This document shows, in pieces, positions 5,081 through 33,512 of a stretch of 64,000 nucleotides of DNA (positions within the stretch are counted from its first letter, which is position 1; each line of letters starts with the position of its first letter). A program made the translations under genes and the position numbers. Origin of the DNA: an uncultured virus (IMG/VR IMGVR_UViG_3300031134_000653) (taxonomy: Duplodnaviria; Heunggongvirae; Uroviricota; Caudoviricetes); the IMG/VR virus record IMGVR_UViG_3300031134_000653. One strand, written 5' to 3'. The notes under the pieces were generated by a model, which was not told the origin of the DNA, searched no databases, and saw nothing but the letters and a program-made list of their open reading frames with translations.

Positions 5081-5521
5081 TTAGTAAATTCTAATCGATA
5101 CACCACTCATGAGGTCTTGGCCAGTGTATTTTTCAGGACACTCTGCTTTGGATTCGAGGAAGAAATCACCAAATCTTCCTTGGTCTGAACTGTCACGTTC
5201 ACGGAAATAAAAGTCATCACTGGATCGGAACTTCACCTCAGTGCCTTCAAGTAGTTCAAGGTCTTCCAAAAGCCAATCATCATTACATCCATCCGCATAG
5301 GAGTAGGTATCGACAAGCCATTTCTTCAGATAAGCCAGAGCTGTTTGCTCATCCGATGTCCCTTCGACATACCAAAAACCGCCATCTTCACCAAACTCCT
5401 CGGCAGTAAGTTTAGGAGTTGGTTCGCCTTTAGCAACATGTTGTAAAGCTACAATGTAAGATTCGCCAGTTTCAGCTACCCGAGCACGAACAGTTTTCTT
5501 CAGGGAGTTGTTCTTCGTCAT
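5081..5521 (-). CDS. protein with N-terminal K..VRAR.A.TGE.Y helix, RNA-leader-associated (A)
   Basis: MTKNNSLKKTVRARVAETGESYIVA; homologous N-terminus in the 32448 gene. Confidence 0.75.
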   Translation of the reverse strand: MTKNNSLKKTVRARVAETGESYIVALQHVAKGEPTPKLTAEEFGEDGGFWYVEGTSDEQTALAYLKKWLVDTYSYADGCNDDWLLEDLELLEGTEVKFRSSDDFYFRERDSSDQGRFGDFFLESKAECPEKYTGQDLMSGVSIRIY

Positions 5522-5675
5522 AGTTTTCTCATTCAATCCTGCAAACACCCCACGCCTGCTCACATATGTCTATGAGTAAACGGAAAGAACAGGATTCACA
5601 GGGAACCTTCCTTCTCATTAACGTCAGCCACGTGGGAGCTTTGACGTTTCAAAGATGGGCTGCTGTTACAGCCAT
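5522..5675 (-). ncRNA. pseudoknotted leader RNA, copy A
   Basis: Shares GGC..ACAGC.GCCC.TCT, AAGGTT..AATCCTGT and GAGC blocks with 32311-32447; loop CCCACG is complementary to downstream CGTGGG; extended -10 TGG-TAATAT at 5682-5690. Confidence 0.7.
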
Positions 5676-5717
5676 GAGAAAATATTACCATGAGGTGGAA
5701 CAACGGGTGAGAAAACG

Positions 5718-6155
5718 TTACCTGTTTAGCTTGAGATGGAATGCGGATGCTGGGAGAAATTTTTTCAGGTCTTCTCTCGCGTAGAGGTTGTTGTTGTATC
5801 TCCATGTGTCTAAAGTTTCATGAACTGCGAGCTGCCAATTTCCTTGAACGTCTTGCCACATGTAGTGTTCATCTACTGCTATGTTTTTGCCGGTCTGAAT
5901 GATTTCAATTTTCCAATCATCATGTTCGTACAGTGTAACTCGGGACCCGTCTTCAAGCTTGAGGTCCAACACCGGACCAAAGTTGTTGGTGGTGTAGACC
6001 CTTGAAACAGTTCCTGTAAGTTCAGGGATTCGGTCGTCTTCTTCATCCCAGGGTAAATCAATATCAGGTAGGTAGAGGTCTTTGTTGTATTCAGGATCGA
6101 ACATGCGAACATTATCGTTTTCCCGAAGGGCAGAGAAATAGTGGTGAATAGTCAT
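5718..6155 (-). CDS. hypothetical protein
   Basis: GGAG SD before MTIH. Confidence 0.7.
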   Translation of the reverse strand: MTIHHYFSALRENDNVRMFDPEYNKDLYLPDIDLPWDEEDDRIPELTGTVSRVYTTNNFGPVLDLKLEDGSRVTLYEHDDWKIEIIQTGKNIAVDEHYMWQDVQGNWQLAVHETLDTWRYNNNLYAREDLKKFLPASAFHLKLNR

Positions 6156-6344
6156 AGTAAAAGCTCCAATTAGTAGATGATGAGGAAAGTAGGTATACAC
6201 ATCTCATCTTTGGAGGAGCTCTGGAACTGATCTACAAGAAAATATTCATGTATAGACCGTACCATAAAAATAGCTTCAAAGTCAAACAAAGCGAATTGAT
6301 CTGATGCTTGATGGCACCTGGCTTGCAACTGTTAGAAATCTGAC

Positions 6345-7109
6345 ATGATGAAAAGTTTTTTCAAGAGTAGAGCCATCCGATCAGAAATACGCAAATGTCG
6401 TTCAGTTGATCCTTCACAGTGTCGCTACCATAGTCTTTACACCGGTTTGGCTGCTGCAGTGGAAGAAAAAGATATGAGCCGCTACTTAGACCTGAAAACA
6501 GCAATCTCAGAAGCGAATCGTGAAGCAGAACTGAAAGGGTTTATTGACGAATCCAACATCAATTCAGAACCCGAATTGACAGTAGATAAAAATGAAGAAG
6601 CTGAAAAATCGCTTACAATTGGTGACTTCTTGACTGATGACAAGGGAATCATCCAGGTGTACAGCAAAGACACTATAAGTTTTGAAAAAGATTACAGTGC
6701 TATGTATACCTTTGGAGAGTTTACTGACCTGGAAACAGCTAAACAACTTCATCAAGATGACCCCTACAAGAAACTCCAAAATGGTGACTGTGCTGACTTA
6801 GCTCATGAGTTGTACAATAACAACCCCTATGTTGTGAACATCTCAGAAGTCAATATTGGAGAAAGAATGCCAGGTATGGAAGAAGATGAATCCATTCATG
6901 TTATTGCTCTACTCAAAGACGGTAACTATGTGGACAGCCTTGGAATCTGGAGCAAAGAAACGATGGAAGCCGCTTGGAAGCAAATCGACCCTACCTCCCG
7001 TGTTACAGATTTCCCTTCCTTTGAAAAGAAAAAACCTTCACCAAACAACCTCCATCCTATCAACAACACAATTCGTAGGATGACGGATGCTTATTTCGAG
7101 AACAAGTAA
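6345..7109 (+). CDS. Cys/His-tag protein with C-terminal papain/transglutaminase-like (C-H-D) domain
   Basis: RKCRSVDPSQCRYH tag; NGDCADLA..L, IHVIA, YVDSLG give a putative triad. Confidence 0.55.
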   Translation: MMKSFFKSRAIRSEIRKCRSVDPSQCRYHSLYTGLAAAVEEKDMSRYLDLKTAISEANREAELKGFIDESNINSEPELTVDKNEEAEKSLTIGDFLTDDKGIIQVYSKDTISFEKDYSAMYTFGEFTDLETAKQLHQDDPYKKLQNGDCADLAHELYNNNPYVVNISEVNIGERMPGMEEDESIHVIALLKDGNYVDSLGIWSKETMEAAWKQIDPTSRVTDFPSFEKKKPSPNNLHPINNTIRRMTDAYFENK

Positions 7110-7189
7110 TAAGTTCACCAGCGATGCACGTAACTAGAACAAATAGGTAATACCCAAGCTGTACATATAACTTGGGCATTATCTATTTG

Positions 7190-7375
7190 TCATTTATTGT
7201 ATAGTCTCTGTTCTCTTCGAGCTTTCATTCGAAGAAGAATCAGTCCTTGCGGAGGAGCAATGAACTTATGGCTTACACCAAGTTCACTTACCCACAGTCC
7301 GCTGGCTCCATGTGACCAGCTTTCACCACACACAGCACATGAGTTAGGGTCAGGGATAACGATGTCCTTCGACAT
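7190..7375 (-). CDS. small Cys/His protein
   Basis: PNSCAVCG...H...W.....H.F..P...L.L.RMKARR; GAAAG SD. Confidence 0.65.
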   Translation of the reverse strand: MSKDIVIPDPNSCAVCGESWSHGASGLWVSELGVSHKFIAPPQGLILLRMKARREQRLYNK

Positions 7376-7569
7376 GTTTTCATCTTTCCGCACCAGTCAA
7401 CAGTTTAGGATTAACCAATTCAATCCTACGTGACAAAAGATAATTTACCACAGAGTTGTAGCAGTAGTCAACAAATATCTAGGGTTTTCGTCAAAATGAC
7501 TAAAAATGAACCGATACTTAGAAATGAGTTACAATTAGACTATCAACAAACGATGAAAGGAACACTATC

Positions 7570-8574
7570 ATGGGATACGGAACCTACTCAACAAGAGCTT
7601 ACGCAGCCACAACAGGAGCAAAGATTGCTTCTGGTTCAACCTTCGGATACGACCGCACAGCTCGTTCAACCGGACGCTACGAAGCCCACGATTCACTTGA
7701 CCCTAAGAAACTGAACGCTGAAGGCAAGAACCTCCGCGAATCTCGTGATGGTGCAGACCACCCTAATGCTGTACCTATCGTAGTCGGATTCGACAGCACA
7801 GGCTCAATGGCTAACACTCCCCGAATCGTGCAGGAGAAACTTGCCAACCTGTTCGGTCTTCTCCTCCGTAAAGGCTACGTAGAAGACCCACAGATTTCCA
7901 TTGCCACATACGGTGATGCATACTGTGACCGTGTGCCACTCCAGATTTCACAGTTCGAGTCAGACAACAAGATTGACGACAACCTCGACAACCTTCTTCT
8001 CGAAGGTGGCGGTGGTGGAAACGGTGGCGAGACCGCAACCCTTCTCTGGTACTACCTCAACAACCATGTGGCTACTGACGCTTGGGACAAGCGTGGCAAG
8101 AAAGGCTACCTGTTCTTGATTGCTGACGAAGTTGCCCTGGATTTGCGTCCTGACCAGATTACCAAATTCGTTGGTGCCACAGAAGCCCCTGCAGCTTCTG
8201 AACTGACAGCTGAGAAGCTTGCTTCGAAGTTGCAGGAGAAGTGGGAAGTGTTTGTTCTCCTCCTCGACAACCTTAGTGCTCACAGCCAGGGTTCGAAGAA
8301 GTTCTACGAGAACCTCTTCGGAGCCAAGAACCTCATCATCCTTGAAAACGATGAAACAGTCAGTGAGACCATCGGTGCTGTTCTGGGTCGCATGGAGAAT
8401 GATGACTTGGATGATGACGAACTCATCGATGACCTTGTTTCTGAGGGTGCTACTAAAGCTATTGCAGAGAAGACTGCAACTGCTGTCGCTCGTCTTGGTA
8501 ACGCTCCTCGCGGGTCTGTTGCGAAGACTAACGTTCGCGTAGACACTTCCGACACAGGTGTTGAGTTCCTGTAA
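7570..8574 (+). CDS. vWA-domain protein
   Basis: MIDAS motif DSTGSM, GDA..D..PLQ..QFE, EGGGGGN.GE, KKGYLF.I.DE. Confidence 0.85.
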   Translation: MGYGTYSTRAYAATTGAKIASGSTFGYDRTARSTGRYEAHDSLDPKKLNAEGKNLRESRDGADHPNAVPIVVGFDSTGSMANTPRIVQEKLANLFGLLLRKGYVEDPQISIATYGDAYCDRVPLQISQFESDNKIDDNLDNLLLEGGGGGNGGETATLLWYYLNNHVATDAWDKRGKKGYLFLIADEVALDLRPDQITKFVGATEAPAASELTAEKLASKLQEKWEVFVLLLDNLSAHSQGSKKFYENLFGAKNLIILENDETVSETIGAVLGRMENDDLDDDELIDDLVSEGATKAIAEKTATAVARLGNAPRGSVAKTNVRVDTSDTGVEFL

Positions 8575-8584
8575 GAATTCATGA

Positions 8585-8625
8585 AAGAGGGGACTAATCA
8601 TTTCAATATGGTTAGTCCCCTCTTT
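8585..8625 (+). terminator. intrinsic terminator
   Basis: GAGGGGACTAATCA / TGGTTAGTCCCCTC followed by a T-run. Confidence 0.8.
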
Positions 8626-8704
8626 TTCGTTGATTGTTTGTCCGATACAGACTGAACTATTACCCAACCTTGCGCGATATAGCTATCTCAGTTATACTAC
8701 AATT

Positions 8705-9550
8705 ATGACAATGTACTCTGCATACCTGGAAGAAGACCAAGCTTTTGTTCAGCTGTCTTCTCAGCAGATCAATCAAACTGTTCAAGACAGAGGAATTCTT
8801 TTACTGAAAGAAATTTTGGCTCTTTTCCCACAACAGGATGTTAACTTAACTCCGAATGCACAGGGACAAGCCAGAGAAGCACTCTTGAAAGTGCTAACCC
8901 GCAAACCAACACGACCTGAGAAAAACAACCAGCTTGTTGTTGAACATCTGTACTCCTACAATGCTGACTTTGATAATTTCACTGCCTCTTTCTTCTACGC
9001 ATACAGACAAGGTGTACTATATTTCAAGTATTCAGTTGATGGAAAAGCTGGACCGAGCAGAATTTTGTCGGAAGACCTTCTCAGCTTAGGTCATTGGCAG
9101 TCATACAAAAATGGTGAGATTACCATTCACCCGTCACCTCTGTCAGAGAATAAAACCAATCTTCAGTTGCTACCAATTCCTGATGTTGTTCTGCCTTCGA
9201 AAAGCAAGACGCAGGTAGAAGTAGAAATGCTTCTTGATGGCTTGTATGCACAAGAGAGAAAGCTCAGGACCGGAACTCTGTCAATCGAACAGGAGCATGT
9301 CCTTGATTCAACTATGGCTTCATGTCAGCAGATTGAAACTCTTATCTCAGGCAGTCGAGATTTTGCTACTAAAGACCAACAAGAAAAAGTCTACTCAAAC
9401 GCCATTCCAGCTTTGGACATGTTAGCGGTGCAACTGGATGCTGTCCGGCAAGAGCTGAATGCGAACGTGCTGCGTGAACTCACTATCATGCAGAGCTACT
9501 TGGTGTCCAAGCACAGCAATCTGACCCTGCCGGATAGTTCTGATGAATAG
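8705..9550 (+). CDS. hypothetical protein with helical C-terminus, paralog of 9649
   Basis: Shares KLR...LS.EQ...L......C ... EL...VLRE......YL with the next gene; leaderless TATACT-6-ATG. Confidence 0.7.
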   Translation: MTMYSAYLEEDQAFVQLSSQQINQTVQDRGILLLKEILALFPQQDVNLTPNAQGQAREALLKVLTRKPTRPEKNNQLVVEHLYSYNADFDNFTASFFYAYRQGVLYFKYSVDGKAGPSRILSEDLLSLGHWQSYKNGEITIHPSPLSENKTNLQLLPIPDVVLPSKSKTQVEVEMLLDGLYAQERKLRTGTLSIEQEHVLDSTMASCQQIETLISGSRDFATKDQQEKVYSNAIPALDMLAVQLDAVRQELNANVLRELTIMQSYLVSKHSNLTLPDSSDE

Positions 9551-9648
9551 GTTCTTCCAAATAAGATAAACAGGCGATGCTCCGCTTCTGCATGATAAAG
9601 TGGAGCATCGCCTGTTTTCAGTTTGATTGAATGAGAAAGTTTATATAG

Positions 9649-10434
9649 ATGATCCCTAAGTTCCATATAGAAAGAGCTAAGTCGCGTTATGCGATTCTCA
9701 TTTATTTGACCGAACAGCAAATGGCTCCTTCTAATATTGAGAATGGCAATCAGATTTTTTGCGAGCAAATATACCGAGCAACTCAAGAATTTTTCCCCGC
9801 TTCTGATTATGCTGCTGACCATATAGTATCGATGATACGTTCTTTACTTTTTCCATCTAAACGTTGGCTATGGAAATCAGCAGAACAAGGCAATAACGTC
9901 CGCTCTTACTCTTGGGGTAGTGACTCCCAGATTACTGTTACCATTAAGTTAGACAGAGAAACTCGCACTTTGCGATATCAGTATGTAAGCACTCCTTCAG
10001 CTGACTACAATTACGGTTCGGGCGGTCCAGTGGAAAATGAGAGTCTGAAAAACCTTACAAACGTTTTGACTGAACAAGATCAGCAAAAAACATTAGCACC
10101 TCAGATAGGTCAGAACATTTTAGTTACATTACATGGTTTGCAAAGACACATTGACAAGTTGAGGTCAAAGAAACTCTCTGTTGAGCAGCAGTTTGATTTA
10201 GAAAGACTGGCAAATGCTTGCAGAACTGTTGACAGGCTCTTGATCGAGCTGAGCCAGAATGATAGTTCTGAGGACGTTCAGCAAGAAACCATCTTAACGG
10301 CTGAGAAGTCCCTGGCTCAGATAGGCTCTTCAGTATCTTCTTTGGAGAAGGAACTATCTGAGGATGTCCTCCGTGAGATGAAGGTCCTGCAAATCTATTT
10401 GAACATGAGAAAAAACTCACTCGAAATCGAATGA
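9649..10434 (+). CDS. hypothetical protein, paralog of 8705
   Basis: Same C-terminal pattern as 8705; start uncertain. Confidence 0.7.
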   Translation: MIPKFHIERAKSRYAILIYLTEQQMAPSNIENGNQIFCEQIYRATQEFFPASDYAADHIVSMIRSLLFPSKRWLWKSAEQGNNVRSYSWGSDSQITVTIKLDRETRTLRYQYVSTPSADYNYGSGGPVENESLKNLTNVLTEQDQQKTLAPQIGQNILVTLHGLQRHIDKLRSKKLSVEQQFDLERLANACRTVDRLLIELSQNDSSEDVQQETILTAEKSLAQIGSSVSSLEKELSEDVLREMKVLQIYLNMRKNSLEIE

Positions 10435-10440
10435 GTTAAA

Positions 10441-10484
10441 AACTGAAGGGTCCCACCTCTAAGATAAGGTGGGACCCTTCAGTT
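10441..10484. terminator. bidirectional terminator
   Basis: AACTGAAGGGTCCCACCT / AGGTGGGACCCTTCAGTT. Confidence 0.8.
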
Positions 10485-10502
10485 CTCTATTGAGTAGATG
10501 GT

Positions 10503-10970
10503 TCAATAAACGTCCTCTTCGTACCCTCGGTTCCTGTTGTTGATTTCAGGAGCATCTCTTTCTGCTTTGCTCAGAATTGTCTGCATTGCAATGTAGTACG
10601 CTGCGATTACAGCAAGAATGACAATCACAACACCGATGAAGTTCAAACCAGTGAAGAGGCGGATGATACTGAAGTACAAACCGAAACCAGTCAGAACAAG
10701 ACCAGCAACTGTCATACCTGAAATGGGAGCTTTCTTAGCAGCTCCAGTAGACTTCGTGGTTGTCTTCGCACTCTTATGCAGGTAGAAGTTTACTACTCCT
10801 GTCAGTAGCCCAAGGAACGGAGCGATAAACGCCAGTACAAGTGTGACCGCACCTGCGATGAGAGCTCCTTTAGGGGAAGACCAGGCTCCAAGAAACCTGA
10901 AAAATTTAGTCTTAGCGAGTTTCTCTGTCGAAGAATCTCCATTGAGATTGGATGGATTTCCAGAAGTCAT
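10503..10970 (-). CDS. membrane protein
   Basis: Three to four hydrophobic segments; AAGGA SD. Confidence 0.75.
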   Translation of the reverse strand: MTSGNPSNLNGDSSTEKLAKTKFFRFLGAWSSPKGALIAGAVTLVLAFIAPFLGLLTGVVNFYLHKSAKTTTKSTGAAKKAPISGMTVAGLVLTGFGLYFSIIRLFTGLNFIGVVIVILAVIAAYYIAMQTILSKAERDAPEINNRNRGYEEDVY

Positions 10971-11150
10971 ATCTGTTCCTTATAGTTTCGTCATGCCCAG
11001 TGTTTTGCTGTCTATAGTTCAGTGTATCTGAATATTCTGAAGTACTCAACAAAACTGAACCATGATATTTTCTCAAAATGGATACCAGTCGGAATGTAAC
11101 CGATAATAATTTCGTATCCATCCTTTACAACATTGAAAGACTTCCCCCCT

Positions 11151-12206
11151 ATGCTTAGGCTTCGCTCCGTATTGCAATCCTCTCGTGCTGCCATCGACCT
11201 GGCGAGCATCATGGTTGGTATTATTGTCATTGGTCTCATCGGCGGTGTTATCGCCGCCACTGTTTTCGCTGTCATTCCATGGTCTCAAGACAAAGCAGCC
11301 AAACAACAGCTCGATTCTGTTCACACTGCAGAGAACGCATTTTTCGGTCTATCTTCTGACCCAAGTCAAAACCTTGTAGGAGGCAAAAAGAACAGCTTTG
11401 CCAATTCAAGTGAACTTGATTCGAATAGCTTGCTGTCAAAAAATACTTCTGGTACTTACTGCGTTGTTCCGACAACTGACGGCAAAGATTACCATGCCTA
11501 TTCTAAGTCTGGTTCAGGCAAATGGTTCTACGCATTGAACAGTAACAAAGAAGCAAAAGTGTTAACTACAGGAGTTATTCCTTGTCTGTTATCAGGTGAT
11601 GCAGCTGGAACAGTAGACCCCACCGTAGATGATGGTTCAGGAACAGTTCCCACAACTCCTGGCACAGGGACAGACACAGGTACAAATCCTACTACACCAG
11701 CAGTTCCCGCTGATGTCCTCATTAAAAACTATGATTTTGAAAACAAATCAACTACCGGATTCTCTGCTTTGAATTCTCCTCGTAGTTATTCCTTCTCTGT
11801 TATTCCCACAACACGCCCAGGAAGCACAAGTGCAAACGCTTTGCAGTTTGTTTCAGAAGCAGACTCAGTGGCTACTCAACCAACCATTGTTGTAGCGATT
11901 CCAAACATTGAATACGGTCAGAAATACCGTGTCACTGCATGGGTCTACAGAGGTCACAAAGATGCTAATCGAACACCAGTTGACTTCAATGTATTTGGAG
12001 TTTCCTACAACGGTGTTGACGGAAGAGGAGACCCTGTTCCAGCGGTGAACACCTGGACAAAAGTAACCTATGAAGTTACTGCCAAATACAGAGGTCTCGC
12101 CAGCAAGAAAATTGTTGAAAACAACTTCACCATTATCAACTCAGCCCCAGCTTATGTCAATTCAAGCTTACTGGTTGATGATATTTCAATCGAGAAAATT
12201 GGATAG
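11151..12206 (+). CDS. type IV pilin-like protein with C-terminal carbohydrate-binding-like domain
   Basis: AIDLASIMVGIIVIGLIGGVIAATVFAVIPWSQD N-terminal helix, Cys pair, PT/G linker, NYDFE...Y.VTAWV...W.KVT...LLVDDISI CBM-like pattern. Confidence 0.65.
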   Translation: MLRLRSVLQSSRAAIDLASIMVGIIVIGLIGGVIAATVFAVIPWSQDKAAKQQLDSVHTAENAFFGLSSDPSQNLVGGKKNSFANSSELDSNSLLSKNTSGTYCVVPTTDGKDYHAYSKSGSGKWFYALNSNKEAKVLTTGVIPCLLSGDAAGTVDPTVDDGSGTVPTTPGTGTDTGTNPTTPAVPADVLIKNYDFENKSTTGFSALNSPRSYSFSVIPTTRPGSTSANALQFVSEADSVATQPTIVVAIPNIEYGQKYRVTAWVYRGHKDANRTPVDFNVFGVSYNGVDGRGDPVPAVNTWTKVTYEVTAKYRGLASKKIVENNFTIINSAPAYVNSSLLVDDISIEKIG

Positions 12207-14254: not shown

Positions 14255-15544
14255 ATGAGGAAAGATGATATTGTCACAGGACTATTCTTAGGTGACGAAG
14301 GAAAAGGGACCGCTGTCGACTATCTTGCCCACCTAAACCGACCAGTTTCTGTTGTTCGAACAGGTGGCCCGCAAGCTGCACACAATGTTGTTAGCCCTGA
14401 CGGCACCCACCACACCTTTGCCCAGTTCGGCTCTGCTTCATTGCAGGAAGTTCCCACTATCCTGTCCAAGTACATGTTGGTCAATCCTTTCAACCTGGTC
14501 ACAGAAGGCGACCTTTTGTATGCGAAAACTGGAGGATGGAATCCTTTCAGTGACCTTCTCATTAGTGAGAATTCGCTCCTTATCACACCTCTCCACATTT
14601 TTCTGAATAAGAAAAGAGAAGACGCCCGAGGCAGCACCGCTCATGGTTCTACAGGTGAAGGCATCGGAGAAACACGACTGTTCCACATTCGCCATCCTGA
14701 GTATGCCCCAATCATGGGCGATTTGCAGCTCGGTAACCTGGACCGCCTGAAAACAAAGCTACAGGCTTTGTACGAATATGTTGAAGAGGAATGTTCCAAC
14801 ATCTGGGACGAAGGAACTGTCGATTCGCTTCATCAGGAGTACATAAACTTAGCGACAGATGAATTCCTCAACATCGTAGATGACGAGAAAATCTCTGAAC
14901 GCATCCGAGAGGGTTACACTATCTTCGAATGCTCACAAGGTGTTCTCCTGGACGAATCCTTAGGTTTCCACCCACATACCACCTGGACTGGTTCAACGTC
15001 TCAGAACGCCCAGCAGCTGCTCTCAGATGCAAATAAGTCTGCCGGTACAGTCATTGGAGTGACAAGAACGTACGCCACAAGACACGGAAATGGTCCTTTG
15101 CCTTCTGAGCTCCCTAACACGGATGAAAACATTACCAGAATGCCAGAAGACCATAATGCGTACGGTCATTACCAAGGAGGTTGGCGTCGAGGACACCTTG
15201 ACCTGCCCTTGCTTGAGTATGCAGTTCGAGCTAACAAAAAAGTAGACTTACTGTTCCTCACTCATTGCGATTTAGTCACAAAGGAATTCCAGGTAGTAAC
15301 CAGCTACCGAGACTGGAAAGATATTCCTTCAACGTTCTATGACCGCGATAGAGTCAAGCAGGAGGAAATTACCTCCCATCTTATGTCGTTGTCCTTAGAG
15401 GATGCCGAACTGACACAAGTTGAGTCTTTGGAAGAACTGGAAGAACTTCTTGAGCAGGAACTTGAAGTTCCAGTTGGCTACCGTTCATTCGGTAAAACTT
15501 ACGATGATAAGACTGTTGTTCAGGTAGGCTTCCAGCCTTCTTGA
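14255..15544 (+). CDS. adenylosuccinate synthetase-like protein (divergent PurA family)
   Basis: G..LGDEGKG..VD, GGPQAAHNV, HGSTG.GIG, FE.SQGVLLD..GFHP.TT, TR.Y.TRHGNGPLP.E, R.G.LD. Confidence 0.85.
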   Translation: MRKDDIVTGLFLGDEGKGTAVDYLAHLNRPVSVVRTGGPQAAHNVVSPDGTHHTFAQFGSASLQEVPTILSKYMLVNPFNLVTEGDLLYAKTGGWNPFSDLLISENSLLITPLHIFLNKKREDARGSTAHGSTGEGIGETRLFHIRHPEYAPIMGDLQLGNLDRLKTKLQALYEYVEEECSNIWDEGTVDSLHQEYINLATDEFLNIVDDEKISERIREGYTIFECSQGVLLDESLGFHPHTTWTGSTSQNAQQLLSDANKSAGTVIGVTRTYATRHGNGPLPSELPNTDENITRMPEDHNAYGHYQGGWRRGHLDLPLLEYAVRANKKVDLLFLTHCDLVTKEFQVVTSYRDWKDIPSTFYDRDRVKQEEITSHLMSLSLEDAELTQVESLEELEELLEQELEVPVGYRSFGKTYDDKTVVQVGFQPS

Positions 15545-19221: not shown

Positions 19222-19263
19222 AAACGAAGAAGCCCCTCAGATGTCTGAGGGGCTTCTTCGTTT
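19222..19263. terminator. bidirectional terminator
   Basis: AAACGAAGAAGCCCCTCAGA / TCTGAGGGGCTTCTTCGTTT. Confidence 0.8.
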
Positions 19264-20162
19264 TACTTCCAACTCCAAGTGCGGGACGGGCGTCCACGAC
19301 TGGTTGAGTATGAAGTAGTCGACACATCATTCTGAGTGATGTAATCGGAGGAACGACTTACAGCGACTGCTGAGGCGGACCTGATAGCTGGTACTGTCCC
19401 ATAGTTCGGAGTCTCTTCAACTGCAGTGTCAACCCAACCAGTGCTTTTCAGCTGACGTGTCAGGTTTGAAGGGTCGTACGAATGGTCGGTGTCAGAATCA
19501 ATGTTGCTCATCTGAGTGAGAATCCCTCGAACAACTTTAGTGGTGAACACATCACCCAGGACAGACTTTGTGAATGTCTTAGATGACAGGAACTTCTCAC
19601 CGAACATGGTCACAGCTGCACGAACAATTGTGTTGTGGTCGAAAGGCAGCTCCACTTCATCTGACGCAATGAGGTGAATAGGAATACGACGAACTTTCTG
19701 TCCGTCTACTTCCACGTTGGGGTCGATGATGGCCAGCTTAGCAATTGCTACGGTAGCACCACGGGGGTCACGGTCAGGGTTATCAAAAGTCCCAAGGTCA
19801 AACACTGCACGCACGGTGTGGGCGGCAATGAGGGTCTTGCTGGCAAGAGCTCGAAGAGCGGCCTCTTCAAGCTGCTCGTGCGGGGTGAGGAGTACTCCAG
19901 GAAGAGCTGGCTCGCCCAGGAAAGGCTCGTAAAGCCGTTCAGCAACGAATACTTCAAGCTGGTTCGTTCGCTCGTTCACAGCCAACGGAATGACATCAAC
20001 ACTGATGTTTGGAAGGTCATACTTGGGGGCGATGAGGTCAACAGCAGCAGATGCGTAGTCCTCAGGGTTGGCGGTACGCCAGTCCACGCCGTCCAGGTTC
20101 TCTGACCAGTGGGTAGTGAGCTTTTCTGTGAGCTGACGCTTGCGAGCGTTAATTTCAGTCAT
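19263..20162 (-). CDS. NUDIX hydrolase with NrtR-like C-terminal wHTH
   Basis: SVDVI, R..EPF.G..ALPG, E.LE.AA.R, RDPRG, LPFDH..I, FT, SN..R, RGRP motifs; the NUDIX box lacks the REL.EE acidic residues. Confidence 0.8.
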   Translation of the reverse strand: MTEINARKRQLTEKLTTHWSENLDGVDWRTANPEDYASAAVDLIAPKYDLPNISVDVIPLAVNERTNQLEVFVAERLYEPFLGEPALPGVLLTPHEQLEEAALRALASKTLIAAHTVRAVFDLGTFDNPDRDPRGATVAIAKLAIIDPNVEVDGQKVRRIPIHLIASDEVELPFDHNTIVRAAVTMFGEKFLSSKTFTKSVLGDVFTTKVVRGILTQMSNIDSDTDHSYDPSNLTRQLKSTGWVDTAVEETPNYGTVPAIRSASAVAVSRSSDYITQNDVSTTSYSTSRGRPSRTWSWK

Positions 20163-26682: not shown

Positions 26683-26749
26683 CAAAATGGTTTCTGACCA
26701 GCAATTATGGTAGAATTGTAGTACGGAAACAAACTCTCAAAGGATAATT

Positions 26750-27082: not shown

Positions 27083-27084
27083 AA

Positions 27085-27128
27085 ATAGAAGAAGCCCCGC
27101 ACCTGACACGGTGCGGGGCTTCTTCTAT
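27085..27128. terminator. bidirectional terminator
   Basis: ATAGAAGAAGCCCCGCACC / GGTGCGGGGCTTCTTCTAT. Confidence 0.8.
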
Positions 27129-27134
27129 GCGGAA

Positions 27135-27587
27135 TTACCTATGGTTGATGATTAGTTCATCACCGTTCATGAGTAGAACATGGTCTGGGAGGTTTACCAG
27201 CTGACCTTCATACAGGCTGATAGCAACTGCAACACTCACTTCGATGCCTTCAAGTTTCAGAGCTGGAATGGTGTACTGCGTGGCGAAGGCTTGCTTGCGA
27301 AACAGTGTGTCCTTCTCGATGCTGGCAGTGTAAAGCTCTGTCACCCACTTGCGAACACCCACGTTTGCTGCACCAGAAAGCAGAAGCAGCCAGACGATGA
27401 AAGCCGCAACGCTGTTCATCACAACCAGACCAAGAACGATACTGGCAACTGCAACCACAGCCCCGACCAGGCTGGCACGCTGAACGAGGTTGATGCTGGC
27501 GATACGAGAAGCTCGACCAGTAAAGTCGAACGGCGAGCTTTCGACATTGATTATAGTCGTCTCTTTGTTCTGCGAAATGATGTTCAT
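27135..27587 (-). CDS. membrane protein
   Basis: Two TM segments; GAGGAG SD. Confidence 0.7.
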   Translation of the reverse strand: MNIISQNKETTIINVESSPFDFTGRASRIASINLVQRASLVGAVVAVASIVLGLVVMNSVAAFIVWLLLLSGAANVGVRKWVTELYTASIEKDTLFRKQAFATQYTIPALKLEGIEVSVAVAISLYEGQLVNLPDHVLLMNGDELIINHR

Positions 27588-27715
27588 TTTTCTCCTCTAA
27601 ACCATCTATCAACCATAAGTGTTACGAACAGAATGATCGTAACAGAAGCTTCTCCAGAATGCAACTGGCACAGCTTCTGGTTGACAAAAAGGAGGGTTCG
27701 GAGTAGAGTTCAGAC

Positions 27716-27997
27716 ATGAACGATTTCATCTACATCATCCAGCGGTATTTTGACCCGCTTATGTCGAACAGTAACATCATTCTCGTCGGACTGGTTTTCG
27801 AAGAGGAGGAAGCTATCAGCATCGCTGAGGGCATTGACAACTACTACAGCCCGAGCGTCCACCGTGTTCCTCTGAACGTCTTCGATGGACCTGATGGTAC
27901 GAACCTGTCGAATCGTGAGAGCGAAATCTACGGCTACCGCAAGGCTGCTGACGGCGGCTGGCGTTGTGGTCGAATTCTCAACGGAGTAGCTGTCTGA
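27716..27997 (+). CDS. hypothetical protein
   Basis: TTGACA...TAGAGT-6-ATG leaderless promoter. Confidence 0.75.
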   Translation: MNDFIYIIQRYFDPLMSNSNIILVGLVFEEEEAISIAEGIDNYYSPSVHRVPLNVFDGPDGTNLSNRESEIYGYRKAADGGWRCGRILNGVAV

Positions 27998-28464
27998 TGC
28001 GTAAAGTTGACGTTCAGACCCCTGAGATAACTGAACTACTTGCTGTTGCTCCTCTGATGGACAAGGTAGGTGAGGTTATCGCACGACAGGTTGAGGTACT
28101 CACCCCTGTCTCCACAGTTATCAATGGTGAGTTCGTTGAGACAGAAAACTTTGCCCAGCCAGGTGACTTCATCGTCACTAATCCTGGCGGAGAAGAGTAT
28201 GTACTCACAGAAACTAATTTTTGGACACGCTACAACGCCAGTGACCGACACGGAATCTATGTCTCTAAGGGTTCGATTCGGGTGATTTCGAATCCTTATA
28301 ACGATGACATTGAGATTGACGCTCCTTGGGGTGCCCCGCAGTTCGGTGAGAAGAACTGTTACATTGCTGTGTCCATCACTTCAGACATCAATGATATCAG
28401 CACTGACCGTTACATCATCGCTGCTGATGCTCTGGCTGAAACTTACGCTTTTCGTTCCAACTAA
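27997..28464 (+). CDS. PGDYG-like domain protein
   Basis: A.PGDFIV.NP.GEEY....F...Y and APWG; TGATG coupling. Confidence 0.7.
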   Translation: MRKVDVQTPEITELLAVAPLMDKVGEVIARQVEVLTPVSTVINGEFVETENFAQPGDFIVTNPGGEEYVLTETNFWTRYNASDRHGIYVSKGSIRVISNPYNDDIEIDAPWGAPQFGEKNCYIAVSITSDINDISTDRYIIAADALAETYAFRSN

Positions 28465-28570
28465 GTAACCGAGAAGGACCTTCCTAAGTAGGTGAAGGCC
28501 CTTCTCTCTTTTAAGGCTCATTTCTGGCAAGATCAGGTATTATTGTAGTACAAGAAAAGGAACGACATAC

Positions 28571-29101
28571 ATGACTATCGTAGCTATCACAGGACACCGC
28601 CCAGAGAAAATTTTGAACCAAGACTGGGTTCATAAAACGTTAGCTGGCGTACTTCAGGAACTTGAACCTGAGAAGCTTATCCAAGGAATGGCTGCCGGCG
28701 TTGACTTGCTCTCCGCTGTAGTTGCCCATGAATGCGGTATTCCTTTCCTTTCAGCTCGTCCCTGGGCAGGTCACTCTCCTCGCGTGCAGGACAGCAACTT
28801 ATACGCCTGGGCAATTGATAACTCTGTTGAAGTTGTGAACGTTGACCCAGCCCAGCATTACGCTGGACCTTGGGTTTACCAGAAACGTAACGAATACATG
28901 GTGGACCATGCAACCATTGTTGTTGCTGTGTGGGATGGAACGTCAGGTGGTACAAAGAACTGTGTCATGTATGCCAAACGCAGGAAAGTTCCTTTGGTCG
29001 TCATCAACCCTGAAACTATGACTGTTACTTACCCTGCTGGGTATGGACCTAACGCCAAGCCTGTGGAGCCTGTTGAGGACGAAGCGAACTTCTTGTTCTA
29101 A
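28571..29101 (+). CDS. SLOG (YspA/DUF1273-like) family protein
   Basis: AITGHRP, GMA.GVD, RN.YMVD, AVWDG.SGGT.NCV.YA. Confidence 0.88.
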   Translation: MTIVAITGHRPEKILNQDWVHKTLAGVLQELEPEKLIQGMAAGVDLLSAVVAHECGIPFLSARPWAGHSPRVQDSNLYAWAIDNSVEVVNVDPAQHYAGPWVYQKRNEYMVDHATIVVAVWDGTSGGTKNCVMYAKRRKVPLVVINPETMTVTYPAGYGPNAKPVEPVEDEANFLF

Positions 29102-29164
29102 ACAGGTATAAAGTGTGATAGAATGAGGCATGTAAGCAAGCCAGCTTTTATGTTAGGAAAAATC

Positions 29165-29692
29165 ATGACATTCGACCACACTCTTTACCTGGACTTCGAT
29201 GGAGTTCTGAACGCTGTCGAACCTCAGCATGACAAGGTTGAGAATTTCGTCATCAAGATTGAAAACAGCCTCAACTTCCTGCCTGAGACTTTCATTGTGT
29301 ACTCCCCCAACGTGGTTGAGACACTTGAGCGTCTTCGTGAGCAGTACAAGATGGAGCTGGTGTGGCTGACTACCTGGAATGAGAACAACACTGTCCTTCG
29401 TCTTGCCGAGCATCTCAAAGGTCTGGACCATGGTCGTGTCCTCCCGGCTAATCTTCACACTGCCAAAGTTGGCAAGCGTGAATGGACTCAGTGGAAAGCT
29501 GAAGCCATTCTTGAAGACCAAAAAGCTTCTGAGCGTCCTTTCATCTGGGTTGATGACAATGCTCACAAGTACTGGGGTGAGGCTGTCAATGAAGGCACAG
29601 AAGCTTCCAGCCTCTTCGTGACACCGAACTCCACCTGGGGTCTTACCAAGAATAACCTTGACAAAATGGAGCAGTTCCTTAGCCAGAACTGA
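29165..29692 (+). CDS. HAD domain protein (Swiss Army knife RNA-repair type)
   Basis: LYLDFDGVLN, VWLTTW, WK, RPFIWVDD, GLT. Confidence 0.85.
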   Translation: MTFDHTLYLDFDGVLNAVEPQHDKVENFVIKIENSLNFLPETFIVYSPNVVETLERLREQYKMELVWLTTWNENNTVLRLAEHLKGLDHGRVLPANLHTAKVGKREWTQWKAEAILEDQKASERPFIWVDDNAHKYWGEAVNEGTEASSLFVTPNSTWGLTKNNLDKMEQFLSQN

Positions 29693-29700
29693 AAAACCTT

Positions 29701-30309
29701 ATGATGCATTTTACTTCAGACCACCATGCGGGTCATACAAACATCCTTCATCTGGGTGATGGTCGAGACTTCAAAAGCATCAGCCATATGCATGCAGAGA
29801 TTATCAACAGGCACAACAGTGTAGTTGGTTTCGATGATGACGTGTACTTCCTTGGTGACATTGCTATGGGCACTCTGGAAGACTCACTGAAAATCTTCTC
29901 AGGAATGATGGGTAACAAGTTCCTCATCCCTGGCAACCATGAGAAGATTTTCAGTGGGACTAACTCCAAGACTCGAATTCAGACATACACCCCTGTCTAT
30001 GAAGATGCAGGGTTTACTGTACTGCCCGAAAACACTTCAGTTGTTATTGACGGTCAAGAAGTTCTTCTTAGCCATTTCCCTTACTCCGAGAAACTGTTCA
30101 ACAAGACACAGACGGACAAGTTTGCTAAGAACCGTCCTGTAGATACAGGTCTTCCGCTTATTCATGGTCACACTCATCAGCGTCACCAGCATCAGGATGA
30201 CAGAAAACGAATGTTCCATGTGGGAATGGATTCAACCAACTTCACTCCTGTGTCTGAAGTTGAAATCATTGACTGGCTAAACCGTCTTAGGTCGAATAAG
30301 ATTCTCTGA
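29701..30309 (+). CDS. calcineurin-like metallophosphoesterase
   Basis: FTSDHH.GH.NI, LGD, GNHE, LSHFP, HGHTH, HVG.D. Confidence 0.9.
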   Translation: MMHFTSDHHAGHTNILHLGDGRDFKSISHMHAEIINRHNSVVGFDDDVYFLGDIAMGTLEDSLKIFSGMMGNKFLIPGNHEKIFSGTNSKTRIQTYTPVYEDAGFTVLPENTSVVIDGQEVLLSHFPYSEKLFNKTQTDKFAKNRPVDTGLPLIHGHTHQRHQHQDDRKRMFHVGMDSTNFTPVSEVEIIDWLNRLRSNKIL

Positions 30310-30708
30310 CCTTCTGGCTGGCACAAGGATATTCTGAGTCAGCTCTTCAGGCACTTTATCCGTGCTGAACTCTTTGATACTGCCATCCCTGTTCTTCCCT
30401 AAAGTTCGAACGTAGGCTTTTTTGGTTTGATTCCAGATGATGTAATCACCTACACTGACGACAGTGTAAGTGTAGTAATCAATCGAATCTCCGTAAGCGG
30501 AAACACCTTTCTGCCAGGTGATCGAATTTCCGTCTTTGCTAAGCTCCATCGAGTGAGGTGCAGGACCACCGACGAAATGAAGAAGCCGACTGTTTGATTT
30601 TTGGTTATTCAGTAGCTCAACCAAATCTTCTTTGGTTTCAATGTAAGCAACACGAATTCGGGGCAGTTCGACAGTGTAAGAAGCAATCTCTTTCATGATT
30701 TCTTTCAT
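30277..30708 (-). CDS. hypothetical protein
   Basis: ORF of about 140 aa. Confidence 0.6.
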   Translation of the reverse strand: MKEIMKEIASYTVELPRIRVAYIETKEDLVELLNNQKSNSRLLHFVGGPAPHSMELSKDGNSITWQKGVSAYGDSIDYYTYTVVSVGDYIIWNQTKKAYVRTLGKNRDGSIKEFSTDKVPEELTQNILVPARRSENLIRPKTV

Positions 30709-30807
30709 GTAGGGTTGGTTAACAAGCATACCAAGAGGCGAACCATCATTGAACTTTTTGCTGTTTCTTGGTATGATTGAACCACCTCACATGACGAAAG
30801 ATTGCTT

Positions 30808-31239
30808 ATGCTTGCCCGAAGTGCCAAATTTACGAAATCTAAATTCTTCTACGCTTTAGACTTCGAGAACCCTTACTCTCTTGAACTCAACGAAGGAACA
30901 TCATCTAACGGTGTCTCCTACAGATACATCAGCGTAACTTACCCTGCAATCTGGTTCAAAACTAAAGCAGGCTTGCTGACTGTGACAGAAGGTTCCCTGT
31001 CTCATAACACAAAGCAGGACACTGAGTTTAATCCGCAAGCAGTCAAAGAAGATGCTTTACGACACTTTGACGGTCGTTACGGTGGAAGCGTTGACTTCCA
31101 ATGGAATGGTGACAGCATGTGGTGTAGGCAGAAGACTCTTGCTGAGATGAATGAAGCCCAAGAACGACTTGACCAGCACCTGAAAAGGTTCCCTCTTGCT
31201 CCTGAAGGATATGAGGGTTGGTACAGCATCAAGGATTAG
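30808..31239 (+). CDS. hypothetical protein
   Basis: ORF with GAAAG SD. Confidence 0.7.
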   Translation: MLARSAKFTKSKFFYALDFENPYSLELNEGTSSNGVSYRYISVTYPAIWFKTKAGLLTVTEGSLSHNTKQDTEFNPQAVKEDALRHFDGRYGGSVDFQWNGDSMWCRQKTLAEMNEAQERLDQHLKRFPLAPEGYEGWYSIKD

Positions 31240-31253
31240 TTTTCAGAAACGGT

Positions 31254-31282
31254 TTGCTTTTTCTGATGGCAGGGTGTATGCT
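31254..31282 (+). promoter_or_regulatory. sigma70-type promoter
   Basis: TTGCTT-17-TATGCT, followed by CTTGTAAGAAAC as in the 3601 promoter. Confidence 0.7.
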
Positions 31283-31307
31283 CATGCTTGTAAGAAACAA
31301 AAGCCAA

Positions 31308-31344
31308 CGGGGTTACTTGAACGCCCGCTCTAAAACAACAAGAA
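31308..31344 (+). ncRNA. 5' UTR hairpin element, copy 2
   Basis: CGGGGTTACTTGAACGCCCG then AAAACAACAAGAA. Confidence 0.7.
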
Positions 31345-31356
31345 AGAATAGAAATC

Positions 31357-31692
31357 ATGTTTGATGTAGTGCTTGATGCAACTACCGAAGTTACCAAGCT
31401 CGAAGCTCAGCTCGCTGAGGCTCGTGCCAACCTGGCAAAGAAGGAAGCCCTCACCCCTGCTCAGCGTCTTGCTGAAGCAATTCATGAGGCTAAGGGTGGC
31501 ACTGACGGTCACCCTGATTGCTACTGGCGGGGTGAGTTCGCTTACAATGAAACCCCTGAAGGGTTCCATGCCTGGGAGCATGAGCGTTTCCTTGGCAAGG
31601 CAGAGAAGGTTCTCGCTCTTGTCAACAACGACCTGGCTGCTGCGTTGAAGATTGTGGGCATCATCACCCGCGATGACACCTACTTCGACTAA
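31357..31692 (+). CDS. hypothetical protein (candidate early gene)
   Basis: Follows the promoter and hairpin UTR. Confidence 0.8.
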   Translation: MFDVVLDATTEVTKLEAQLAEARANLAKKEALTPAQRLAEAIHEAKGGTDGHPDCYWRGEFAYNETPEGFHAWEHERFLGKAEKVLALVNNDLAAALKIVGIITRDDTYFD

Positions 31693-31712
31693 ACTCCACC
31701 CACACTAATTCT

Positions 31713-31750
31713 GCAGGGTTACTTGAACGCCTGCTATAAAACAACAAGAA
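31713..31750 (+). ncRNA. 5' UTR hairpin element, copy 3 (covarying)
   Basis: GCAGG-GTT-ACTTG-AAC-G-CCTGC then AAAACAACAAGAA. Confidence 0.7.
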
Positions 31751-31762
31751 AGAACTAAAACC

Positions 31763-32239
31763 ATGCTGATTGAATTCACTCACGACCACGTTACAACCCG
31801 GCTTTTCTTCCAGGATGACGCTGGTCGCCGTAGGGCTCTACTGCGAGCTATGGCTGCAGCACCTTTTACTGTCAACGCTCCTAACGAAGAGCTGACAAAC
31901 CTTGGTGTCCTGCGTGAGTACATCGATGCTTACAAGCTGCCTCAGGCAATGGTAGATATGGCTGGTCCTGCACTGAAGGCTCAGCTGGAGAAGCAGCGTA
32001 ACTTCACCGCAAGCATTGTTGCACGCAAGGAGGAGGGACATGACCTCACTCTGCACCGGGACCAGCTGCTGGCCCTGCCGGTAGATGAAGCTATCACCAA
32101 GGTGTTTTTCGCCAACGGTGAAGTTCAGAACGCTGTTGACTACATTGCTGTTGAGCTGGATAAGCTCTACACGAAGCTCACTTCGGATGGTTACACGTCG
32201 AAGAAAATTTACACACTGCACGAAGCTGAGATGGCATAA
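31763..32239 (+). CDS. hypothetical protein (candidate early gene)
   Basis: Follows hairpin copy 3. Confidence 0.8.
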   Translation: MLIEFTHDHVTTRLFFQDDAGRRRALLRAMAAAPFTVNAPNEELTNLGVLREYIDAYKLPQAMVDMAGPALKAQLEKQRNFTASIVARKEEGHDLTLHRDQLLALPVDEAITKVFFANGEVQNAVDYIAVELDKLYTKLTSDGYTSKKIYTLHEAEMA

Positions 32240-32306
32240 CCTGATTCTGAACGAAACGACCAGCATAAAAACTGGTCGTTTCGTCGTTAAGTGATAACCT
32301 TGTACA

Positions 32307-32447
32307 CAGAGGCATCCACACAGCTGCCCGTCTCAGATGTTCCTTCCTACGCAAGGGCGTCGTTGAGAGCAAGGTTTTAGAAATCCTGTGTCATACAAAC
32401 CTTTAACCATTTCGGTTGAGCGTAGGTTGACTGAGAATGGAAATCAA
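32307..32447 (+). ncRNA. pseudoknotted leader RNA, copy B
   Basis: Loop CCTACGC (32346-32352) is complementary to GCGTAGG (32420-32426); shares sequence blocks with copy A; extended -10 TGA-TAACCT at 32292-32300. Confidence 0.7.
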
Positions 32448-33512
32448 ATGACGAACGACCGAACCCGCAAACTCAAAATTCGGGAACGCATGACAGCTAC
32501 CGGGGAAGTCTTCTCTGTTGCCGCGAAAAGCATTGATGCTGAAATTACCAGCCACAAACCAGGCTGGCAGGCTTTCCTTGAAGGATTCGGGAACACTAAC
32601 CCAACCAAAGTTTGGCGTCCTGAAGGACTCAACGATTGGACACAACCGGTGTACTCTCTTGTGACTTCAGCCTGGGAAGGTGACACTACATCTCTACATG
32701 CTTTAGGTGCAGCCTACAAAGCTTTGGAAATGAAAGGTCATTATTTCTGCTTCCATCACTACACTGTAGAATACATTCAGTCTTGGTTCAGTCAGAAGCA
32801 AATTAGTCCATCAATGGACCAACTGCGGAATACCTTCAACCAGATGCATGACACTTTTCAGTACCTGGAAGACCATCGCTGGTTTGATTCAGCTTTAGCT
32901 GATGAAGCCACAGTTGAAGCTGCTCAAAAACTTGTGCAGTTCACAGAGAAAGACATCATTACCCGTATCAACGAATCTTTACAACAAGATGTCCGTACAG
33001 CTAAAAACACGAACTTCTACACCACTGACGGTATCATCATGATGAGCCTTCTCTGGTCAGTCCTTTCGCAGGATGAACGAATCGTATTCGTGGATGGACT
33101 GACCAAGCTTCTGAAAAACCTTCCATCCGTGGAAGAAGCGAACACTGATGACATCATCTACAGCAGGTATTACGTTCAACCTCCAATTGCTCGCCCAGAG
33201 CTTGCAGTGGGAGATGAAGTGAAGTTCAAAAAAGATGGTCAAAAGTGGACTGTTCGTGGCTCTTCTGAAAACTACACAGTTCTAACTCGTGTGCCTAAAA
33301 GCAAAACCACGTTAGGTCAAGATCAGTACACTATTGTGGACTGGTCAGTAAGCAACCGTGGAGCTCACAGCAGCTACGGCCATGCTGTGAAAACTGATGC
33401 TGATGTACAGACCATTCTTGAAGTTTTGGAAGACTCTACGAACGATATCGAGCTGAGTCGCAATCAGGTACCATGCCGTATTGAGCTGGTAAAGAAAGCC
33501 AAACAGAGATAA
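32448..33512 (+). CDS. protein with N-terminal K..IR.RM..TGE helix, RNA-leader-associated (B)
   Basis: MTNDRTRKLKIRERMTATGEVFSVAA. Confidence 0.75.
   Translation: MTNDRTRKLKIRERMTATGEVFSVAAKSIDAEITSHKPGWQAFLEGFGNTNPTKVWRPEGLNDWTQPVYSLVTSAWEGDTTSLHALGAAYKALEMKGHYFCFHHYTVEYIQSWFSQKQISPSMDQLRNTFNQMHDTFQYLEDHRWFDSALADEATVEAAQKLVQFTEKDIITRINESLQQDVRTAKNTNFYTTDGIIMMSLLWSVLSQDERIVFVDGLTKLLKNLPSVEEANTDDIIYSRYYVQPPIARPELAVGDEVKFKKDGQKWTVRGSSENYTVLTRVPKSKTTLGQDQYTIVDWSVSNRGAHSSYGHAVKTDADVQTILEVLEDSTNDIELSRNQVPCRIELVKKAKQR

Follow-up and report, generated by a model that had tools for sequence, protein, structure and literature searches.

A leader RNA with two pseudoknots associated with an N-terminal protein module in phage-like genomes and mobile DNA of Actinomycetota

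Results

Two leader RNAs and their downstream genes

The DNA analysed here is a stretch of 64,000 nucleotides (nt), referred to at its full length as the window, from the IMG/VR record IMGVR_UViG_3300031134_000653, an uncultured virus assigned to the Caudoviricetes. Two of its genes, open reading frame (ORF) A on the minus strand and ORF B on the plus strand, are each preceded by a structured leader RNA (copies A and B), and the encoded proteins begin with the same type of basic N-terminal module. Five ordered elements had been described for both copies in an earlier note on this DNA, and all of them were located again. A covariance model (R1), built from 24 family members and containing only the nested helices with both pseudoknots left out, yielded two matches in the window, namely copy B (93.5 bits) and copy A (79.6 bits). 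Since the model matches exactly these two places in 64 kb, the similarity of the copies is not due to chance. The features of both loci are listed below; individual loci from other genomes are referred to by L numbers.

Copy A
5682..5690, minus: extended -10-like box TGgTAATAT, read by eye, ending about 7 nt before P1
5522..5675, minus: whole leader RNA (R1 match, 79.6 bits, E 3e-22; the match spans 5516-5675 and so takes in the first two codons)
5658..5673, minus: hairpin P1, GGCTG(T)/(G)CAGCC; loop AACAG (5667-5663), 5' strand of pseudoknot 1
5613..5655, minus: P2, with TCTT/GAGA at the base, ACGTCA/TGACGT in the middle and GCT/GGC at the top
5636-5630, minus: P2 loop CCCACGT, 5' strand of pseudoknot 2
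5607-5593, minus: local hairpin P3, GGTTC/GAATC, from the family alignment
5592-5588, minus: CTGTT directly after P3, 3' strand of pseudoknot 1
5576-5559, minus: hairpin P4, CTCATA/TATGTGAG, overlapping P5
5563-5557 with 5547-5541, minus: P5; its loop GCGTGGG (5555-5549) is the 3' strand of pseudoknot 2
5081..5521, minus: ORF A, 146 amino acids (aa), ATG at 5521, no Pfam family
5521-5432, minus: N-terminal module of ORF A, residues 1-30, MTKNNSLKKTVRARVAETGESYIVALQHVA
5036..5070, minus: terminator-like hairpin 3' of ORF A, called by a scan

Copy B
32292..32300, plus: extended -10-like box TGaTAACCT, read by eye
32307..32447, plus: whole leader RNA (R1 match 32309-32453, 93.5 bits, E 2e-26)
32311..32328, plus: P1, GGCA/TGCC (32311-14 / 32325-28); CACAG in the loop (32319-32323), 5' strand of pseudoknot 1
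32331..32368, plus: P2, with TCTCA (32331-35) / TGAGA (32364-68), GATG/CGTC and CTT/AAG
32346-32352, plus: P2 loop CCTACGC, 5' strand of pseudoknot 2
32371-32389, plus: AAGGTT..AATCCTGT
32373-32385, plus: P3, GGTTT/AAATC, from the family alignment
32386-32390, plus: CTGTG, 3' strand of pseudoknot 1
32406-32417, plus: small hairpin AACC/GGTT, overlapping P5
32412-17 with 32429-34, plus: P5, TCGGTT/GACTGA; its loop GCGTAGG (32420-32426) is the 3' strand of pseudoknot 2
32448..33512, plus: ORF B, 354 aa, ATG at 32448, cargo without Pfam family
32448-32537, plus: N-terminal module of ORF B, residues 1-30, MTNDRTRKLKIRERMTATGEVFSVAAKSID

Each copy forms its own transcription unit, in which the box is followed about 7 nt further on by the first hairpin and the leader extends up to the ribosome site. 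The extended -10 boxes that had been claimed for both copies are visible by eye, but a two-hexamer promoter scan called neither of them. Boxes of the form TGGTAnnnT occupy the same place in loci orthologous to copy B. Contigs from two RNA libraries cover positions 32323-32473 and parts of ORF B; DNA may be present in such libraries and the contigs reveal neither ends nor strand, so that transcription is not shown by them.

Fold and covariation of the leader RNA

Leaders of this family are about 140-170 nt long and consist of P1, a three-part P2, P3, a variable P4 and P5, connected by two long-range pairings. In pseudoknot 1, the P1 loop pairs with a 5-nt strand directly 3' of P3. In pseudoknot 2, the loops of P2 and P5 pair with each other and form a kissing loop. 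The pairing of the P2 loop with a complement near the 3' end had been recognized before, together with its covariation; the complement lies in the P5 loop, so that the contact is loop-to-loop. The AAGGTT element is also present as described, yet it is not one unit but the P3 hairpin plus the CTGTG/CTGTT strand of pseudoknot 1, a contact that had been missed. Similarly, the short hairpin ending in GAGC (P4) exists but is not separate, as it overlaps the 5' strand of P5 in both copies. A long-range AAGGUUU/AAACCUU helix, considered as P3 of copy B, was dropped because the alignment shows a local P3 and a near-identical strain (L001) lacks the 3' strand in question.

Phage-like and actinobacterial leaders align end to end in a MAFFT alignment of 24 sequences (A8). 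P2 contains one conserved C.A or U-A position and is closed by the 7-nt loop CCYACRC. The junction reads GA-GGACAAGG, with GAGCAAGG in phage-like members, and the local P3 is GGGUC/GACUC or GGUUU/AAAUC with a conserved G.U pair. Examples of the pairing of the P1 loop with its 3' strand are CACGC:GCGUG, CGCGC:GCGCG and UGUGC:GCACA as well as CACAG:CUGUG (copy B), AACAG:CUGUU (copy A) and GACAG:CUGUC (L221). The P5 loop carries GYGURGG, the complement of the P2 loop, and is followed downstream by a purine-rich Shine-Dalgarno sequence (SD) and AUGAC.

The fold is backed by covariation in two alignments. In A8, which was made by MAFFT only, 91.2% of cells pair, compared to 37-45% when the partners are slid, and both sides change in 30 of the 41 pairs; none of 500 shuffles attains the observed values. 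The 52 matches fitted to R1 (A9) give 91.1% against 35-48% in the slid controls. Compensatory changes occur in 30-33 of the 41 pairs across both alignments. The shuffle control ignores the relatedness of the sequences, whereas the slid control does not. Within A9, pseudoknot 1 is paired in 88.9% of cases with all five pairs covarying, and pseudoknot 2 in 97.8% with covariation in four of seven pairs. A conserved aptamer-like fold of this kind is what is expected of a riboswitch. From phage-like DNA of 45% G+C to actinobacteria of 70%+ G+C, both covarying pseudoknots are retained, as are the invariant bases of the junction. The minimum free energy z-scores of single sequences are unremarkable (-0.01 to -2.18).

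In the near-identical strain L001 (4876-5006; 96% protein identity), 14 nt of the variable P4 region are missing from the leader while all other elements are intact; from this deletion, P4 seems to be dispensable. A leader-B variant, 32359 G>A, also present in L001, converts a U.G pair of P2 into U-A. A related strain contig differs from the window at 65 of 1401 positions. Among 40 of 79 strain differences that were listed, this variant is the only one within the 141-nt leader B, a figure that is indicative only.

Comparison with databases and literature

The RNA had not been assigned to a named family in the earlier note, and a search of the whole window with the 4227 models of Rfam 15 returned no match at the gathering threshold. 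Both window copies gave only chance hits far below threshold at E<=10, with no ribozyme family among them, and for 18 loci from actinobacteria and IMG/VR no match on the leader was obtained at E<=1. A literature search with five module peptides had no hits, and keyword searches, at the level of listings and abstracts, led to known motif catalogues only; neither returned a description of the leader RNA or of the module. Together with the family alignment, these comparisons show both window loci to be members of an uncatalogued family of 5' leader RNAs.

The Rfam result bears on a role of the RNA by itself, as a self-cleaving ribozyme, a 5' stabilizer or a translation enhancer. Its nested double-pseudoknot architecture, its position at the 5' end of the transcript and its occurrence on mobile elements would agree with such a role. 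However, no Rfam ribozyme matches even at E<=10, a fixed place before one gene family would be unusual for any self-cleaving ribozyme other than glmS, and a stabilizer would not need so much conserved structure. We consider an RNA acting alone very improbable.

Distribution of the leader RNA

A portable combination of leader RNA and basic N-terminal helix, attached to variable cargo, had been proposed in the earlier note on the basis of the two copies, and the same combination is found well beyond the window. Orthologues of protein B are encoded at seven metagenome loci, four of which lie on contigs of 240-883 kb (L002, 240 kb; L001, 789 kb; L003, 879 kb; L005, 883 kb). Provided that they belong to phages, the genomes that bear the cassette are of very large size for this group. 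The leader is located upstream in all six of these loci that include the gene start; its blocks are much better conserved than the proteins, whose identity is only about 40%, and covariation is seen in P1 and P2. Two IMG/VR contigs with new cargo also carry the leader, one with the loop pair CCUACAC and GUGUAGG (L221), the other, G+C-rich and beside an integrase gene, with CCCACGC and GCGUGGG (L220).

A back-translated peptide pattern identified 24 loci in GTDB genomes, 18 of which are real N-terminal modules, all from Actinomycetota. The complementary loop pair is visible by eye in 16 of the 18 loci, and R1 matches 17 (L232 weakly, at a contig start; L234 is unmatched). The genomes reached via seed loci all contain the RNA (5/5), one of them in a second copy. 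In the families to which one Micromonospora, one Nonomuraea and one Streptomyces genome belong, it is found in 8 of 41 genomes (E<=0.001), 15 of 40 and 3 of 40 (E<=1e-4), respectively. In a phylum-wide sample, 6 of 151 genomes were matched; only two of these matches are credible, namely the seed genome and L257. Pattern scans for the RNA were uninformative, yielding 94 stretches in IMG/VR, none with the other elements, and 38 in GTDB genomes, none of them real.

Nine plasmid records match by blastn. Two of them were inspected, pVMKU of Micromonospora maris and, with two copies of the leader, pSLUN2 of Streptomyces lunaelactis. Multiple copies are also found in the genomes G203 (three) and G002 (two) and in the window (at least two). 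Loose contig ends in the populations related to the window point to at least one further leader paralogue, with CUCCUACAC upstream, that runs into TTG-ACC-ACC-AAC-AAG (MTTNK). Genes for an integrase, FtsK/SpoIIIE and relaxases, fragments of Tn3 transposases and many ORFs without family surround the leaders; by this gene content, the neighborhoods are mobile or variable regions. Across the loci compared, the hosts of the cassette are shown to be mobile parts of Actinomycetota genomes, plasmids and giant phage-like genomes.

The N-terminal module and its cargo

The module comprises the first ~30 codons, encoding two helices, the first of them basic, with a T-G-E turn in between. Its consensus in 38 sequences (alignment A10) is M-T-x-D/N-x-x-R-K-x-A-I-R-x-R-M-A-x-T-G-E-P-Y-S-V-A-A-R. 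AlphaFold2 predicts a helix at residues 3-18, a turn and a helix at residues 22-35, with a mean predicted local distance difference test score of the block of 92-93 over residues 11-30. No entry for the module was found in Pfam, NCBIfam or PHROGs, and a Foldseek search gave nothing at E<=0.001, the weak hits including N-terminal helices of HU (E>3). A full HMMER scan found the module in 3543 cluster representatives at E<=0.001 and in 257 at 1e-10. Among the best 150 of these matches, the module starts within the first five residues in 123, and the proteins are 41 to 411 aa long.

Proteins A and B are 28% identical over their first 40 residues. Complete divergence thereafter had been noted and largely applies, but there is one weak BLASTP match of 26 residues (E 0.002). 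It places residues 42-67 (also 89-136) of protein A against residues 251-298 in the beta-rich C-terminal part of protein B, and a distant relationship of the two cargos is possible. Five relatives of protein B were found in the protein collection (39-97% BLASTP identity), all of which keep the N-terminus MTNDRxRKxxIRERMAxTGE; no relatives of either protein were found in IMG/VR. Searches for the fold of cargo B gave nothing at E<=0.001 and no PDB fold match, a PDB sequence search gave nothing relevant, and ESM Atlas scores of 0.81 were uninformative.

Searching with a profile made from the first 40 residues revealed the module on DnaB_C-like ATPases, AAA_33, FHA and KH proteins and Streptomyces hypotheticals. 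Together with Cys-rich domains and many regions without family, these form a set of unrelated cargo domains, and the controlled genes have no single pathway or transport function in common; a shared one would be expected for a riboswitch. In the Streptomyces Cys-rich family (L102-L181), the leader is another one, short and strongly conserved, which lies about 70 nt before position 1501 and in which the hairpin CCUCCUGG-loop(GCUGCGUGAAC)-CCAGGAGG buries the SD.

Linkage of leader and module

The linkage was assessed with 41 model matches that had not been used as seeds and were found without reference to the protein. Of these, 28 precede a module ORF and two a decayed module (16 residues are kept in L279, only MTADK in L278). 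Two precede ClpC-like AAA+ genes (L263, L266) and one is cut by a contig end. The remaining eight have no module, all score <=31.7 bits and are probably false. Among the assessable matches at >=40 bits, the module is present in 22 of 24 and decayed in the other two. Thus RNA and protein domain co-occur across lineages, the pattern expected of an autogenous operator. A second leader in L261, cut by the contig end, is located on the other strand 210 nt from the leader of the module gene. From the loci compared, we conclude that the leader travels with the first ~30 codons and is joined to many unrelated C-terminal domains.

The linkage also has to be accounted for if the leader is an operator for another trans-acting factor, such as a protein of the host or the element or another RNA, and the module is a DNA- or protein-binding head unrelated to the RNA. 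The ClpC-like genes with leader would fit such a factor, and a regulon could be made up of the several copies that a genome contains, whose cargo differs. Linkage in 22 of 24 matches would then be explained by descent only, and no candidate was seen to co-occur in the neighborhoods. This explanation appears quite improbable.

Position at the ribosome site and mode of action

In the aligned members, P5 ends a few nt 5' of the purine-rich SD, which places a structured element at the ribosome site. A switch that sequesters the SD was considered with two possible partners. The P4 region shows no excess pairing with the SD (median z -0.22; 4 of 46 sequences at <=0.05), nor does the 3' strand of P5 as anti-SD (median z +0.5; 1 of 47 at <=0.05), and both variants were dropped. 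Without excess SD pairing, the conserved fold therefore sits directly upstream of an apparently open SD. When the 3' strand of P5 is omitted, a median of 5 of the 7 nt of its 5' strand pair, compared to 4.0 in shuffles; this alternative P4/P5 pairing is modest, with z<-1.64 in 10 of 46 sequences.

These results bear on the possibility of an orphan riboswitch, in which a core of P1-P3 and P5 would recognize a small molecule or an ion that reports the state of the host to mobile elements and would tune translation, the module being linked by descent only. A riboswitch has to be taken seriously as a rival because the leader is built as elaborately as an aptamer, with two covarying pseudoknots and junction bases that are invariant over the whole G+C range, and because the leader can exist without the module, as it does before the ClpC-like genes. 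The modest sign of alternative P4/P5 pairing points in the same direction. Nevertheless, the common denominator of the controlled genes is a protein module rather than a pathway, and their neighbors are heterogeneous. No SD-sequestering helix emerged from either pairing test and no terminator follows the element. Genes without module would also be expected more often than in two of the 30 matches with a recognizable gene. On balance, a riboswitch seems unlikely. The missing SD switch is more easily reconciled with a protein operator acting by steric hindrance than with the platform of a classical riboswitch.

Our preferred interpretation is that the leader is a translational operator bound by the module encoded downstream, that is, a case of autogenous control. 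It is favored because of the tight linkage of RNA and module, the diversity of the cargo and the apparently open SD, and we assign it tentatively a probability of roughly 0.4. The leader starts at or near the transcription start and ends just before the ribosome-binding site. Once made, the module would bind the folded leader abutting the SD region and limit further initiation on its own mRNA. It may act also on sister mRNAs with the same leader, such as those of the ClpC-like genes, and the cassette would thereby provide any cargo with a built-in limit of expression. A further point in favor is that one genome contains a module gene and a ClpC-like gene with the same leader subtype (L262, L266).

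Several observations weigh against control by the module. Full leaders precede ClpC-like genes (MFERFTDRSRR...) that lack it (L263, 1501-1649; L266, 1501-1662), and no second leader was found within 1.5 kb of these genes. Homologous proteins without the RNA, named in the earlier note as the finding that would speak against its proposal, occur in a single Cys-rich subfamily of Streptomyces, where all 80 loci lack the RNA; therefore, the module can work without it. R1 gave no match in three genomes of this subfamily, but one relative (L295) has a full leader. The predicted fold of the module is not a known RNA-binding fold, its resemblance to the N-terminal helices of HU being weak (E>3). The linkage could be plain co-inheritance, if recombination joints lie at the domain boundary. 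Finally, by its size, its two pseudoknots and the nucleotides that are invariant at the junction (GGACAAGG / GAGCAAGG), the leader resembles a riboswitch or ribozyme more than it resembles most protein operators.

A further-reaching interpretation is that of a portable ribonucleoprotein cassette. Here, the nascent N-terminal helical hairpin would bind the leader of its own mRNA in cis and co-translationally, so that the cargo would be made in a self-limiting burst or remain tethered to its message, and plasmids, integrated elements and giant phages of Actinomycetota would reuse the cassette on many genes. We regard this as rather improbable.

Other features of the window

The window has a G+C content of 45% and about 96 ORFs, closely packed on both strands. 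The few Pfam matches include a pyrimidine-dimer glycosylase, a PurZ-like adenylosuccinate synthetase, an RNA ligase, a NUDIX protein and a DNA methylase as well as RCC1 repeats and an ADP-ribosyltransferase. A tRNA scan of the 64 kb found none, and no DNA or protein relative of the window sequence was found among GenBank phages. By appearance, the window looks like part of a very large phage.

The adenylosuccinate synthetase homologue is encoded at 14255-15544 (plus); the PHROG that matches it best is the '2-aminooxy adenylosuccinate synthetase' of PurZ type (E 1e-66), and the phage DNA may contain a modified purine (2-aminoadenine). An ADP-ribosyltransferase-exoenzyme-like ORF and an 875-aa RCC1-repeat protein are located at 51971-52747 (minus) and 57603-60230 (minus), respectively.

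In many window genes, TGTTAGAAT-like extended -10 boxes lie only 4-9 nt 5' of the ATG (e.g. 6345, 15602, 16536, 18838, 19263-20162 (minus), 41191-41742 (minus), 47855 and 51971-52747 (minus)). This short spacing suggests leaderless or near-leaderless mRNAs. A motif GAATG(G/A)RAA is found 8-15 nt 5' of several start codons (5534-5521, 32437-32450, 9630-9651, 51572-51591 and 62498-62515 (minus)) and often starts a mini-ORF of 2-5 codons whose stop overlaps or abuts the main ATG. An upstream mini-ORF at the leaders, with the AUG inside GAAUGG and a stop overlapping the main AUG, was considered and dropped, as the motif also precedes other window genes; it looks like a general ribosome-site motif.

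Discussion

If confirmed, the leader represents a new and widespread class of structured RNA with two covarying tertiary contacts and a good target for structure determination. For the N-terminal module, which is very common and unannotated (3543 cluster representatives, E<=0.001), it would also offer the first hint as to what its role is. To our knowledge, neither known riboswitches nor ribosomal-protein leaders show a pattern in which a leader is obligatorily paired with 30 initial codons, regardless of the rest of the protein. The system would further illustrate how mobile elements and very large phages give an acquired gene ready-made post-transcriptional control, and would supply a compact, transferable control part for the engineering of Streptomyces.

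Orphan riboswitch candidates from comparative genomics share with the present leader a conserved, covarying structure of unknown ligand in the 5' untranslated region, genes of unknown function and a frequent location on mobile DNA (Weinberg et al. 2010, 2017; Stav et al. 2019). The leader matches none of the motifs catalogued in Rfam 15, and no recognizable expression platform emerged from the two SD pairing tests.

Type III toxin-antitoxin RNAs are repeats of ToxI-like pseudoknots. Like the leader, they are pseudoknotted, occur on mobile elements and in phages, and are encoded just upstream of a protein gene. However, neither the tandem repeats nor the terminator before the toxin gene that characterize this type were found: there is a single copy per gene, without tandem array, and the RNA is the leader of the mRNA itself, running into the SD and the start codon without intervening terminator.

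The pseudoknot operator of rpsO (S15) is a ribosomal-protein leader, and such leaders mimic sites in rRNA. They resemble the family described here in that a structured leader lies beside the SD and the protein is encoded downstream. Each of them serves one protein, whereas the present leader serves many proteins that share only 30 residues.

In phage T4, the mRNA leader of gene 32 has a 5' pseudoknot that acts as operator in autogenous translational repression. Here, too, a phage gene has a pseudoknotted 5' leader upstream of the ribosome-binding site, binding by its own product being only proposed in our case. The T4 system differs in that it combines one simple pseudoknot with cooperative single-strand binding and has neither a portable cassette nor an N-terminal module.

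The arginine-rich N-terminal peptide of lambda N acts in antitermination with boxB, a hairpin of 15 nt. In both systems, a phage protein begins with a short basic helix that is paired with an RNA structure close by; in place of the small hairpin, however, the family described here has a double pseudoknot of ~150 nt that precedes the start codon of the very protein carrying the helix.

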